Origin: Candidatus Woesearchaeota archaeon
GTDB taxonomy: Archaea; Nanobdellota; Nanobdellia; Woesearchaeales; UBA10216
Assembly (NCBI GenBank): GCA_016188155.1
Contig: JACPIH010000002.1
Coordinates: 1 to 63,398 of the forward strand
Reading direction: 5' to 3'
DNA: 63,398 bases
Part shown: positions 11,870 through 23,525 of the stretch, piece by piece
Layout of the letters: every line of letters begins with the position of its first letter
Position numbering within the stretch: the first letter of the stretch is position 1
Made by a program: the position numbers and the translations under genes
Notes under the pieces: model-generated
Told to the model about the DNA's origin: nothing
Database searches by the model: none
What the model saw: only the letters and a program-made list of their open reading frames with translations

Positions 11870-14800
11870 TTACCTACGCCCTCTTCTAGATGACTCAGAA
11901 ACGAACTCGCTGATTCTTTCCTTTTCCCTCAATCTTCTGAAGATAATGAAAAACAGGATGATGAAAAAGAGCAAAACAGCAGCTGCAAAAGCTGCGGCAA
12001 GCCTGGCGTTACTTCCCGAAATTATTGAAGGCCTTCCAGGCTGCACAGCAGGCTGAGAAACGTTCGTTGACTCATTGGCAACCTTATGCTTAGCGGGAAC
12101 CGAAACGGTCCTGTTCACAGCAGCCTGCTCAGGAACAGCCTCTGCCGCAACAGCAAAAAGCGAGAACGCCGGAAGCTCAGCAGAGTAATAGTAATAAGAG
12201 CTGTCCTCGCCAATCAAAACAATCATCATCCTGTCCCAGGAACCGGCAGAGTGCCTCAGCAGGGAAACCCCTTTGGGCTTAAAGCTGTTCTGAACCAGCC
12301 ACAACTTTGGAACACGGAACTCAACGCCTGCATCAGCGATGTCAAGGAATGTGAGCTTTGTTGTCACGGAGAGATACTGGTAAGCCCTCAACCCAGGCAA
12401 AGGCATGCCTGCAATACCTGACTCGTTAACAATCTCAACGTCAACATTTATGTTGGATAGCGAAGACGCTGCGGTAAAGCGCAGCTTGGTAAATGAGATT
12501 GAAGAGCGGTTGATTTTCATAATGGCGGTATCGCCCTCCTTAATAGCCGTGAACAGCTGAGACGCCCTGCTTGCAGAGCCGCCTGTGCCTCCAGCACTGC
12601 CGCCACCACCGCCACCTCCGCTGCTTCCTGCACCTTGGACTGACGGACAGACAGCATCAGAACCTGAACAATCCTCATCAATGCCATTCCCGCACGTGTC
12701 AGCTGCGCCAGGGTTAATGCCTGAGTTACTGTCGTCGCAGTCATTACCGCTGCCGCAACTGGAAACGTAATAGTTGTCAGCATCTGAGTCAGCGCACTGC
12801 TCCTTCGCCGCAGTAAAGTTAGCGCCGGTAATTTTGTAATAAGCGCCATTATCAACCAAGGAGCAGTTGTAGCTGCCGCTAACGCCCGGGCAACTAACCA
12901 GCGTTTCATTGGCGCCGTTGCAGCTGAAGCTGATGTTGCCGAATGAGGAAACGTCAGCATCCTTTATGCAGGTGCTGTTAATCGTGTTGTTGAGCTTGCT
13001 TAGCGTTATGTTCTTGGCCTGCCCGGGCTGGAGGCGCAGCCCCTTTACTATTATGCCGCCAAAGGACGATGTTAAATTCTGTACGTCAACAGTAAAATTA
13101 AGCGAAAGGTTGCTGAGGCTGAAGTTCCAGTAAAACTCCACCAAGGGGCGGCTGCCGTTCGTAATATTAACAAAGAAGGTGCCATTTAGAAGCCTTGACA
13201 TGTTTGTTGTGCCGTTGACTGTTACATTAAAAGCGGCTGCGGCGAGAGTTGATGAGTTGATGCTCGTTATATTTCCAACTATTGAATCATCACCATCAGC
13301 AACGCCGTCATTATCATCATCAGAGTCGTAAATGTCAGGAATGCCATCACCGTCAAAATCATGTCTGTCAATCACTGTAACGTTGAAAAAGCCGATGCTT
13401 GAGCTGCCGAAGTCTGTAACGTTCACCCTGAACTGGTAAGTGCCTGAGTCAGAAAGATTAGTTTTCCAGCTGAAGTTTGCAGCAGACTGGTTCCTTGTTG
13501 TAAAGTTAAACCTGGCAGTGTCGTTGACTGTAAAATTGAGGAAGTCATTCTCAGCATCATCAGCAACTGCCGTGATATTGGCAAAGTCCGTCTCATTAAC
13601 CGTAATGTTGCTGATTGTGAACAGCATTGGAGTGTCGTTAACGGGGGTGATATTGACGAAAATAAACTCAGAGGCGTTAGCCAAGCCATCTGAGGCGTTA
13701 ATTGCGAGGTAGAAAATGCCGGAAAAGTTACCGGCTCCGGAAAGGTTAAATGTTATGTTCCCTGCTGTGGCGTTGATTGTAAAGTTCACTGTGTTATTGA
13801 TGAAGTAAGTTATTGAGTCATTATCCAAGTCAGCAGCAACGACCGTGAAATTTAGCGGTGTATCCTCAGCAGATGTTTGATTCACAAGAGCAGCCCAAAC
13901 AGGAGCCCTGTTCGTGTTATTAACAATCAATGTCCAGTTAATCTGCGTTGAGAGGCCGCCGTCCGAAAGAACTGCTGTGATGTTGTAGGTGCCGTTCCTC
14001 TGCTGCGCTGCCTGCGTGAAGTTGCCGAGGAACGTGAAATTGGTATTCCTGGCAGCTGCCTGAATGGTTCCGTTTACATACCAGTCAACAGTCAATGCGT
14101 CATTTTCAACATCAGTAAATGTGAGGTTGAAGGTTTGGTTATTTGGCTCTGCAACGTTGGGTGCAATGCTGGAAGGCAGAAACGTGTCAATCCTTGGAGG
14201 TGTGTTGTTTACCTGAACTGTCCTAAGCTCTGAGACGCCCAGGCGGTTGTTGGAATCATTGCCCCAGACCCTGTAGGTTATCACGCCAAGGCTGCTGGAG
14301 CTGTGATTCCTAGCCCAGTTAAGGGCTGAACCGTTCTGGACCATGCTGTAGTTGACGACGTGGGTATTGTTGTTCCACTCTAACAATGCAGAAGCCAAAA
14401 CCTCGTTGCTGGTGATGTTGACAAAGACGTTGGCTGAAGAAACGTTGGTGTTATTGGCAGGTGTCGGTGCAACAATGGTGATGTTCGGAGGGTCAGTGTC
14501 CAGGTAAAGAAGGGCCTTGTAAACGTTTATTCGCGCGAACTGTATGCCGCTGCCGCCAGTGTCTGTGAGGTTAACGCCGGTTGTGTTCAGCGCCAAGAAC
14601 GCGTCATTTGGGCTAATGTTCAAGCCAGTTGTAAGCTTCTTGAACTGGGCTAAAAGCGCAATGGCTCCTGAAACGTGAGGGGCAGCCATTGAAGTGCCGT
14701 CCTTTGAAGTGAAGCCGCCCTGGTAGTTGACAGACGTTATGCCGGTACCAGGCGCAAGCAGGTCTGTAATGTTGTTGCGGTTGTAAGGCGAGAAACCGTC

Positions 14801-23149: not shown

Positions 23150-23229
23150 AGAATATCAAGCAGGCGGATTAAACAGGTTGTTATTAAGCTTTTTTGTTTT
23201 TTTGAAAAGAACAAGTGGGGACGCTGGGA

Positions 23230-23375
23230 CTTTCACAGCCCTTTTGTTCGCTGATGCTCACAAAAGCCCAAGACGCCTTTGAGGGCGTCTGGGCACAGTC
23301 GTCAGCTGACGACTTGTGCGCTGGCGGAAAAACGTTTTCCGTCAACGCTTTTTTCGCGCACGAAAAAAGGGTTGG
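23230..23375 (-). other. 146-nt non-canonical tRNA intron in the T loop (59/60) with a strict bulge-helix-bulge
   Basis: Central helix U54U55C56A57/UGAA, 3-nt bulges AA|C and AG|U, and outer helix CA(A)CCC/GGG(C)UG. The interior consists of five hairpins. Confidence 0.88.
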
Positions 23376-23396
23376 TTTGAACCCAGATCCGAGGCT

Positions 23397-23453
23397 TTCT
23401 TCTTATGGGTAAGTCATCGCCTTCGGTTTGCCGTTGGCTCAGTTCTCCAATCA
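23397..23453 (-). ncRNA. 57-nt canonical-position tRNA-Trp intron carrying a box D / box C-like kink-turn and a C34 guide
   Basis: UGAUUGGAGAA-CUGA-GCC-AA-CGG-CAAA-CCG-AA-GGC-GAUGA. The fifth nucleotide upstream of CUGA (G at 23447) pairs with C34. Confidence 0.65.
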
Positions 23454-23517
23454 CTGGAGGCCCCCATAATGCCGGGTTATACTACGTCCCCTTGAGTTTT
23501 CCAGCGCCACCACAGCA

Positions 23518-23525
23518 TATTTAAA
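23518..23525 (-). promoter_or_regulatory. TATA box of the tRNA-Trp gene
   Basis: TTTAAATA on the minus strand, 26 nt upstream of tRNA position 1. Confidence 0.7.

Follow-up and report, generated by a model that had tools for sequence, protein, structure and literature searches.

A probable T-loop intron built of palindromic repeats in the tRNA-Trp gene of a woesearchaeal genome

We have analyzed a stretch of 63,398 nucleotides (the window) from a draft metagenome-assembled genome (MAG) of Candidatus Woesearchaeota, and specifically the tRNA-Trp(CCA) gene located on its minus strand, in which the T-loop is interrupted by 146 nt. Comparisons inside the genome and with its relatives indicate that this insert is, with a probability that we would put at roughly 0.75, a real bulge-helix-bulge (BHB) intron, recently gained and spliced, in which mobile palindromic repeats have accumulated passively. 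The source genome (G000 hereafter) has 1.08 Mb in 41 contigs with a GC content of 47.9%, the window being contig C36. It was compared with the other genomes of the genus (eleven in total, G000 to G010), with a metagenome contig (L019), with the outgroups G024, G030 and G032 and with four further outgroups (L020, L021, L022 and L028). The contigs orthologous to the tRNA-Trp region derive from groundwater Woesearchaeota MAGs.

The limits of the intron are marked by a strict BHB of the hBHBh' type. Along the minus strand, the 5' strand of the T-stem (CUGGG, 23386-23382) is followed by the central strand UUCA (23381-23378) and by the 5' bulge AA|C (23377-23375). The inner helix pairs CAACCC (23374-23369) with GGGCUG (23241-23236), with one A.C mismatch, and then come the central strand UGAA (23235-23232), the 3' bulge AG|U (23231-23229) and the 3' strand of the T-stem, CCCAG (23228-23224). 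The 3-nt bulges are on opposite strands, with a 4-bp helix between them and a helix of 2 bp or more on either side. A first-pass annotation had proposed this strict motif, with the central helix UUCA/UGAA and the same two bulges, and reading the sequence confirmed it. Cutting at both bulges restores the canonical T-loop UUCAAAU, which places the intron between nucleotides 59 and 60 of the tRNA, with C at 23375 as its first nucleotide and G at 23230 as its last.

The unspliced locus is missed by ARAGORN and by Rfam (at the gathering threshold and also at E<=1). Once 23375..23230 was removed in silico, ARAGORN found a 74-nt tRNA-Trp(CCA) with a second intron, of 57 nt, in the anticodon loop. When the spliced sequence was used as BLAST query, its positions 1-37 matched 23455-23491 at 100% identity and positions 37-59 matched 23376-23398, the splice register of the anticodon-loop intron being ambiguous by one A. 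No second tRNA-Trp was found in the G000 assembly, since this query matched this locus alone. An intron-less orthologue from another family of the order aligned end to end across both junctions (82% over 73 nt, E 1.4e-14).

The same position is interrupted in other tRNA genes. Raw pattern scans for acceptor stem and T-arm were very noisy; each split T-arm candidate was spliced in silico and then re-tested with ARAGORN. At least eleven tRNA genes of G000 turned out to carry an insert at 59/60, six of them long (Tyr 63 nt, Val 55, His 100, Ala 102, Pro 114 and Trp 146) and five, all in class II tRNAs, short (17-29 nt). The ten genes besides tRNA-Trp are found on contigs C9, C10, C14, C32, C34, C35, C37, C38 and C40. 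Before excision most of these ten were missed, mis-called or under the Rfam threshold, three short-intron genes (C38:13419-13518, C40:7691-7805 and C40:2054-2143) being detected unspliced by Rfam or ARAGORN. As most genes with a 59/60 intron escape a search that is not aware of the BHB, tRNA annotation is probably incomplete in DPANN genomes. Two more T-loop-like loci of G000, at C19 ~1650 and C25 ~12000, had no recognisable BHB.

In the six long introns of G000 and in four introns of congeners, the intron strand of the central helix matches nucleotide 57 of the host T-loop. UUCA is paired with UGAA in six cases (G000 Trp, Tyr, Pro and Ala, G005 Met and G009 Ile), and UUCG with CGAA in the remaining four (G000 Val and His, a G008 tRNA and G009 Gly). 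This covariation of exon and intron is comparative evidence that the central helix forms. We take the BHB to be under selection and the 59/60 site to be a hot spot. Besides, similar introns are found in tRNAs of different identity (G009 Ile, G005 Met, G000 Pro and G009 Gly), as in a family of transposed introns.

The minimum free energy (MFE) of the intron folded alone was -65.9 kcal/mol, while shuffled sequences gave -42.2 +/- 3.9 (z -6.16) and none of 200 shuffles was equally stable. This fold consists of five adjacent hairpins, H1 to H5 (Table 1), in agreement with the five back-to-back stems of the first-pass annotation, including its perfect 9-bp stem (H1) and its perfect palindrome of 18 bp in the third stem, which we found as an 18-nt palindrome. 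When the T-arm was folded together with the intron, the MFE structure (-73.7 kcal/mol) was the BHB closing a six-way junction with the five hairpins. An alternative pairing across the intron, CCCUUUU/AAAAGGG, was only 1.3 kcal/mol weaker (-72.4) and retained the BHB, so that the U-rich and A-rich arms can indeed pair either locally or across, as had been predicted, with the splice motif kept in both folds. Folded as a circle the intron reached -63.3 kcal/mol and preserved all five hairpins.

Table 1. Coordinates in the window of the tRNA-Trp gene, its parts and the hairpins of its T-loop intron
Feature	Position	Strand	Basis
tRNA-Trp(CCA) gene, two introns	23216..23491	(-)	ARAGORN after in-silico removal of the T-loop intron
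Exon 1: acceptor 5' strand, D-arm, anticodon stem and loop to CCA	23456..23491	(-)	BLAST
Anticodon-loop intron, 57 nt	23399..23455	(-)	ARAGORN; genus orthologues
Exon 2: anticodon stem 3' strand, variable loop, T-stem CUGGG, T-loop UUCAAA	23376..23398	(-)	BLAST
T-loop intron, 146 nt, between nucleotides 59 and 60, strict hBHBh'	23230..23375	(-)	sequence, folding
Exon 3: U60, T-stem CCCAG, acceptor 3' strand CGUCCCC, discriminator A73	23216..23229	(-)	sequence, ARAGORN
TTTAAATA, resembling a TATA box, 27 nt upstream from the 5' end of the mature tRNA	23518..23525	(-)	read from sequence
H1 CUUUUUUCG-UGCG-CGAAAAAAG, 9 bp perfect	23348-23369	(-)	MFE fold
H2 GCGUUGACGGAAAACGUUUUUCCGCCAGCGC	23318-23348	(-)	MFE fold
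H3, contains the 18-nt perfect palindrome 23297-23314	23295-23317	(-)	MFE fold
H4	23266-23294	(-)	MFE fold
H5 CUUUUGUGAGC-AUCA-GCGAACAAAAG, tandem G.A internal loop	23242-23265	(-)	MFE fold
H3+H4 double-hairpin palindromic module, 52-53 nt	23266..23318	(-)	covariance model R1

All five hairpins belong to repeat families found elsewhere. The T-loop intron of the G009 tRNA-Ile(UAU), 93% identical over intron positions 2-42, has the same H1 with a 20-nt core that is identical, and a variant of H1 is present in the anticodon-loop intron of the G009 tRNA-Gly. Both halves of H2 are found again, as GCGYTGRCGGAAAAC and ACGTTTTTCCGSSRGCGC modules, in other introns and in intergenic arrays. BLAST of the intron against its own genome retrieved at least 7 further copies of H5, a hairpin whose tandem G.A internal loop is conserved, and pieces of H1 to H4 at other places too. 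The pieces of H1, H2 and H5 match other tRNA introns and intergenic DNA in both orientations, also in the congeners.

For the double hairpin H3+H4 we built a covariance model (R1) from eleven sequences of this kind. It gave 95 strand matches in G000, corresponding to ~50 loci, and the copy in the intron, with 62.2 bits and rank 11, is typical of them. All 11 genomes of the genus have this repeat, with copy numbers that vary tenfold between congeners (11 to 114 strand matches each). Matches were also obtained in five further genera of the same taxonomic family, and none in 16 genomes of the order's other families. Of 51 loci in G000, 8 are situated 200 nt or more within an open frame that is itself 300 aa or longer, ~7 are in or next to tRNA genes and the remainder is intergenic. 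The open frames that contain the module are 313-996 aa long (C1:8349, C6:1537, C8:36789, C11:4060, C13:24144, C22:2527, C28:33582 and C40:5814), and these copies may be read through in frame, like the Rickettsia palindromic elements (RPEs). When the copies of the module are aligned, compensatory differences are seen in their stems.

A further 'base' element, TGACC(T/C)TTTT-loop-AAAAGGTCAATCMAAAAAC, had 18 matches, ~15 of them clear copies, and several carried H3+H4 or larger arrays nested in the loop. About 40 hairpin arrays were found across G000 by searching for DNA stable on both strands; the underlying sliding-window MFE scan returned 189 regions and was informative only once this double stability was demanded. 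Simpler searches were less productive. Searching with single hairpins in nhmmer was too insensitive to recover the copies, a scan for perfect stems (stem >=8) passed over the intron on account of the G.U pairs and mismatches in its stems, and a regular expression for H3-type hairpins failed because of a conserved A.G mismatch. Exact-pattern scans for the ends of the Trp T-loop intron in metagenome and genome collections gave nothing, and an exon-pattern scan gave one extra metagenome contig and four outgroup genomes. The module CAGCCC-TTTT-GCG-AAAA-GCGCTGGCGGAAAAC, found at the start of several T-loop introns, was also observed to begin 2 nt past the 3' end of a tRNA-Val gene (L045, G010:C34:1-400), a position that suggests some preference of the module for the context of tRNA genes.

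How the intron was assembled can be read from a comparison of filled and empty sites. The T-loop intron of the G005 tRNA-Met(CAU) reads AGCCC-U6..A6 (H1), GCCC..GGAAAACGUUUUCCGCCAGCGC (H2), UUUUGCGAG..CGAGCAAAA (H5) and GGGCUG-UGAAAG, that is, the layout H1-H2-H5 without H3+H4 and with the same 3' end, GGGCTGTGAAAG, as the Trp intron. When both are aligned there is one clean gap of 52 nt, exactly H3+H4, at ...CCAGCGC|TTTTG.... The empty site CCGCCAGCGC|TTTTG is found in this intron and in that of the G000 tRNA-Pro, which has the same layout. A T-loop intron of a G008 tRNA has, at this GCGC|TTTTG junction, an independent copy of H3+H4 whose loops differ, and a second copy elsewhere. Outside introns, the copy of H3+H4 located beside the tRNA-Val of G010 has an identical H3 and an H4 that differs mainly in the loop (90% over intron positions 44-115). 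The anticodon-loop intron of the G009 tRNA-Gly(GCC) has in common with the Trp intron the module CAACCC-U5..A6-GCGUUGACGGAAAA. Orientation is also mixed: H3+H4 is inverted in the Trp intron of G010 with respect to G000 and is antisense in the His, Ala and C25 loci, and H5 has one orientation in the Trp and Pro introns and the opposite one in those of Val and Tyr. Repeat membership, empty sites and mixed orientation indicate that the hairpins are DNA-level palindromic elements and not a designed RNA. As far as the alignments tell, H3+H4 is a secondary insertion into the Trp intron.

Two loci deserve a separate description. In the G009 tRNA-Gly(GCC) (L043, G009:C4:14400-14750) a repeat module is found in the anticodon-loop intron and a base-element intron in the T-loop, indicating that the same modules populate introns at different positions. 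At C25 of G000 (~11986-12037) a Leu(CAG)-like tRNA is interrupted precisely at 59/60 by the 52-nt H3+H4 module and nothing else. There is no UGAA partner and no BHB, and the acceptor and D stems are poor; the repeat has probably inactivated this gene, or else its splice motif escaped our recognition.

The orthologous tRNA-Trp genes, which have syntenic flanks, show that the site is filled in a species-dependent manner. There is no T-loop intron in G001, G002 and G007 of the same genus, nor in the outgroups G024, G030, G032, L020, L021, L022 and L028. G004, G006 and G008 have a form of ~32 nt unrelated to the intron of G000. In G005 and L019 the insert has 48-55 nt and consists of the base element, a genome-wide 'TGACCTTTT-loop-AAAAGGTCAATCAAAAAC' sequence, with a tail that supplies the BHB strands. 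In G010 it has 118 nt and combines an inverted H3+H4 with a 'type A' scaffold (AGCCC-U5..A4 ... GCCCUGGGGGAAAACG..GGCU), the same that is found in the Tyr, Val, His and Ala introns of G000. Absence in three congeners and in the outgroups indicates that the intron-less state is ancestral and that the site was filled several times by different sequences. By this comparison, the Trp T-loop intron of G000 is a recent gain, within the genus.

The first-pass annotation had offered a passive repeat insertion, a functional RNA and a transposition-intermediate RNA as possible natures of the intron. The first is the one that our results strongly favor, given that every hairpin belongs to a repeat family found elsewhere in both orientations, that H3+H4 is a clean 52-nt insertion and that the intron is missing in congeners and outgroups. 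The second would have the excised intron as a selected structured RNA (a circular protein sponge, a regulator or a scaffold) with its hairpins kept for that purpose. The exceptional stability of the fold (z -6.2), kept in circular form, the compensatory differences in the stems and the conserved tandem G.A internal loop of H5 could be read in this way. However, compensatory changes are equally expected of DNA palindromes, the intron is absent or replaced in the orthologous genes, its interior is not conserved between orthologues, and the same modules appear in both orientations within introns, in intergenic DNA and inside open reading frames. No Rfam family was matched at E<=1 and no box C/D motif was found in the intron, and we regard a selected function as very unlikely. 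The candidate of a box C/D guide in the T-loop intron was rejected on its own account: there is no C box, and the single CUGA lies inside the H3 palindrome.

The enzymes that the splicing of the intron would need are encoded in G000. There is one EndA of 198 aa (Pfam PF01974 and PF02778; C28, 42011-42271 region), with homologues of 84-91% identity annotated as Candidatus Woesearchaeota. Its best solved relative is the catalytic subunit of N. equitans, in which an insertion separates the catalytic Tyr from the His. The EndA of G000 lacks this insertion and aligns without gaps over residues 50-198 with the alpha4 EndA of M. jannaschii. No second EndA subunit was found in G000. A weak PF01974 match at C9:19342-19422 (E 0.007, 16.5 bits) was discarded as such, being a 31-aa open frame outside any open reading frame of at least 60 aa on that strand. 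The ligase RtcB is also present (PF01139, 517 bits). An alpha4-type EndA is expected to need a strict BHB (PMC5829648).

Enzymes that could mobilise the repeats are distributed differently. Across the genus, Y1 transposases were detected in 2 of 11 genomes (G002 and the repeat-rich G005), a distribution not related to copy number, and reverse transcriptases in 3 of 11 (G002, G003 and G007), which are among the poorest in repeat copies; genes for both are found mostly in low-copy genomes. REP elements mobilised by a RAYT were considered as a model and rejected, since PF01797 was not found in the incomplete assembly of G000 and the distribution of Y1 does not follow the number of copies. The same data bear on a spread at the RNA level, in which the circular intron would be reverse-spliced or ligated into another tRNA and then fixed by reverse transcription and recombination. 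That related introns share position 59/60 across different tRNAs and species, with a BHB strand matched to the host T-loop, would fit such a route. On the other side, no reverse transcriptase was found in G000, the result that also left the transposition-intermediate RNA of the first-pass annotation without support, the genomes that do have one are poor in repeats, and the modules appear in both orientations and at non-transcribed or non-BHB sites. In addition, the intron transposition described in Thermoproteales is probably a DNA-level process in the published view (PMC4090602). We find this route far-fetched.

A different matter is whether the repeats themselves generate introns, for us the most interesting possibility left open by the analysis. 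The palindromic families would then be the agents of intron gain: a repeat, or a cassette with its own YGAAAG 3' end, would insert after UUCRAA and survive where a BHB is formed with the universal UUCR of the T-loop. The result would be an archaeal counterpart of the eukaryotic introner elements and not an older intron that was colonised. Several observations go in this direction. The T-loop introns of G005, L019 and the G009 tRNA-Gly are almost wholly base element and start exactly at its TGACC end, the ancestral tRNA-Trp has no intron and at least four different forms occupy 59/60 in congeners, one module is found both in an anticodon-loop intron and in T-loop introns, and H3+H4 alone sits exactly at 59/60 of the Leu-like tRNA at C25. 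Nevertheless, the C25 case has no BHB, has poor stems and is probably a dead gene, most copies of the repeats are intergenic and some are in coding sequence with no BHB, and the search for a mobilising enzyme (Y1 or reverse transcriptase) in G000 found none. Moreover, the type-A motif CCTGGGGGAAAA (part of the scaffold GCCCTGGGGGAAAACGGCTAYGAAAG) occurs only four times in G000, a count equal to that of the type-A introns (Tyr, His, Ala and Val), although the loci were not matched individually; it behaves as an intron family and not as a general repeat. We consider this origin of the Trp intron improbable. A wider proposal, namely that the palindromic repeats are vehicles of tRNA intron birth and turnover in the genus, with YGAAAG-ending cassettes that enter T-loops after UUCRAA and also anticodon loops, seems to us doubtful though conceivable; if true, it would explain the repeated independent gains at 59/60 and provide a prokaryotic analogue of the introner elements.

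In the reading that we prefer, that of a spliced intron passively filled with repeats, the precursor would be transcribed from the TATA-box promoter, and the T-stem, the UUCA/UGAA helix and the CAACCC/GGGCUG helix would form the strict hBHBh'. The single-subunit, M. jannaschii-like EndA would cut both 3-nt bulges, and RtcB would ligate the exons, giving the T-loop UUCAAAU, and probably circularise the intron. The interior would have no function of its own and would represent a nested mosaic of lineage-specific palindromic DNA repeats. A first module, 'CAACCC-U6-loop-A6-GCGUUGACGGAAAAC', would comprise H1 and the 5' half of H2, and a second one would be a composite of the 3' half of H2 and H5, the 52 nt of H3+H4 having probably been inserted later between both at ...CCAGCGC|UUUUG.... 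The gain of the intron would fall within this genus, at a position that received different introns in other congeners, and the intron would belong to a set of T-loop introns with sequence common to different tRNAs, as in intron transposition. Whatever lies between the bulges is discarded provided that the BHB still forms, which makes the intron a safe landing place where repeats accumulate by nesting. We infer that the intron is actually spliced and circularised and that the repeats spread at the DNA level, and the modelled circular fold, together with the presence of EndA and RtcB and the known circularisation of other archaeal tRNA introns, makes it reasonable to expect a highly stable circular RNA after excision, as in the first-pass annotation.

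Several results weigh against this reading. The unconstrained MFE fold of the full 276-nt precursor (-119.1 kcal/mol) lacks the BHB and has two local hairpins instead (GGGUU with AACCC and GGGCU with AGUCC), and the fold that contains the BHB is 5.2 kcal/mol less stable (-113.9). The expectation of the first-pass annotation that the predicted fold would preserve the BHB held for the T-arm with the intron and failed for the whole precursor, the only result that spoke against that annotation. As the nearest-neighbour model omits the tertiary contacts of the tRNA and the binding of the enzyme, we did not take the precursor MFE as a refutation. No target-site duplication is evident at the insertion; the GC that precedes H3+H4 can be read as a 2-nt duplication or as nothing. 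An autonomous partner was sought, and neither a Y1 transposase (PF01797) nor a reverse transcriptase was found in G000, which is an estimated 88.7% complete, so that a transposase, a second EndA subunit or a second tRNA-Trp could be missing from the assembly. Finally, a passive interior is compatible with a secondary role that such a very stable circular RNA may have.

The fold of the precursor would also suit a pseudogene or an assembly chimera, in which the 'intron' is a repeat insertion that killed the gene. At least one other tRNA-like locus, C25, is seemingly disrupted by a module with no BHB, and this is a metagenome-assembled draft with an estimated contamination of 3.9%. Yet the gene is the sole tRNA-Trp found in the assembly, its exons are intact and 82-97% identical to the orthologues, and its strict BHB is in the register that restores a perfect UUCAAAU. 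The TTTAAATA box is kept upstream of tRNA-Trp in the congeners, and its role as a promoter element is deduced from the known layout of archaeal promoters. Besides, ten further 59/60 introns of G000 obey the same rule. A dead or chimeric gene is thus scarcely credible to us.

The gene has other introns apart from the one in the T-loop. That of the anticodon loop is kept genus-wide. Its sequence includes UUGGAG, a complement of the anticodon loop, together with AA-CUGA, a GCC/GGC stem and GAUGA; it looks like half a box C/D guide, reminiscent of the euryarchaeal tRNA-Trp introns. A third intron of ~36-40 nt is found in the D-loop (GGGGAYGTAGTAYAA|...|ACCCGG) of six congeners, G001, G002, G005, G006, G007 and G008 (L003, L004, L013, L007, L008 and L012), and is absent in G000, G004, G010 and L019. 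The number of introns in tRNA-Trp thus ranges from one to three depending on the species.

For the question of how archaeal tRNA introns are gained and moved, this genus amounts to a natural experiment of uncommon clarity. At 59/60 of the orthologous tRNA-Trp genes, some species have no intron and others have one of ~32, ~50, 118 or 146 nt. Identifiable modules, with sites both filled and empty, make up the introns and are common to T-loop and anticodon-loop introns, intergenic DNA and coding sequence. All this happens in genomes with a plain alpha4-like EndA, and together these features make the link between selfish palindromic DNA and intron gain directly testable. In our literature searches we found no tRNA intron family built from palindromic repeats, and no 59/60 hot spot with repeated gains among congeners having a plain alpha4-like EndA.

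The closest known situation is that of the Thermoproteales, with non-canonical BHB tRNA introns, multi-intron tRNAs and 'intron transposition' (Sugahara 2008; Fujishima 2010, summarised in PMC4033280 and PMC4090602), the latter probably at the DNA level by an unknown mechanism (PMC4090602). As there, introns outside 37/38 are defined by the BHB alone, there are several per tRNA, similar introns are found across isoacceptors and positions, gain is rapid and lineage-specific, and the genes are missed by standard tRNA finders. In contrast, the Thermoproteales belong to TACK and our host to DPANN, and their (alpha-beta)2 EndA with a Crenarchaea-specific loop is replaced here by a single M. jannaschii-like subunit with no insertion over residues 50-198. 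Here the introns are concentrated at 59/60, in at least eleven genes, and their interiors are built of genome-wide palindromic repeats, for which the literature searches provided no report in Thermoproteales. A survey of DPANN that included one Woesearchaeota genome described more disrupted tRNA genes, and incomplete tRNA sets that imply undetected ones (Kaneta et al. 2018, PMC5829648); the passages of it that were retrieved contain nothing on repeat-built introns or on a 59/60 hot spot.

Regarding the repeats, palindromic families such as REP/BIME, RPEs and MITEs are known in bacteria (PMC3184786, PMC3733652). Those described here are similarly short imperfect palindromes in tens of copies, clustered, nested and in both orientations, with copy numbers that change strongly between close relatives and some copies that may be tolerated in frame in genes, as RPEs are. 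As a difference, no RAYT/Y1 transposase was found in G000, the enzyme being present in 2 of the 11 genomes of the genus. A GTAG/CGTC tag and terminal inverted repeats were not seen, nor an evident target duplication, the host is an archaeon, and a marked share of the copies, at least 7 of ~50, is inside or beside tRNA genes. As for the fate of the intron, excised archaeal tRNA introns circularise, including those of Sulfolobus (PMC3326292). In the tRNA-Trp of Haloferax volcanii a functional box C/D guide is contained in the anticodon-loop intron, whereas the T-loop intron studied here has no C or D boxes and is not conserved between species. Both have in common the host, tRNA-Trp, and a long structured intron, that of Haloferax volcanii being known as a stable circle.

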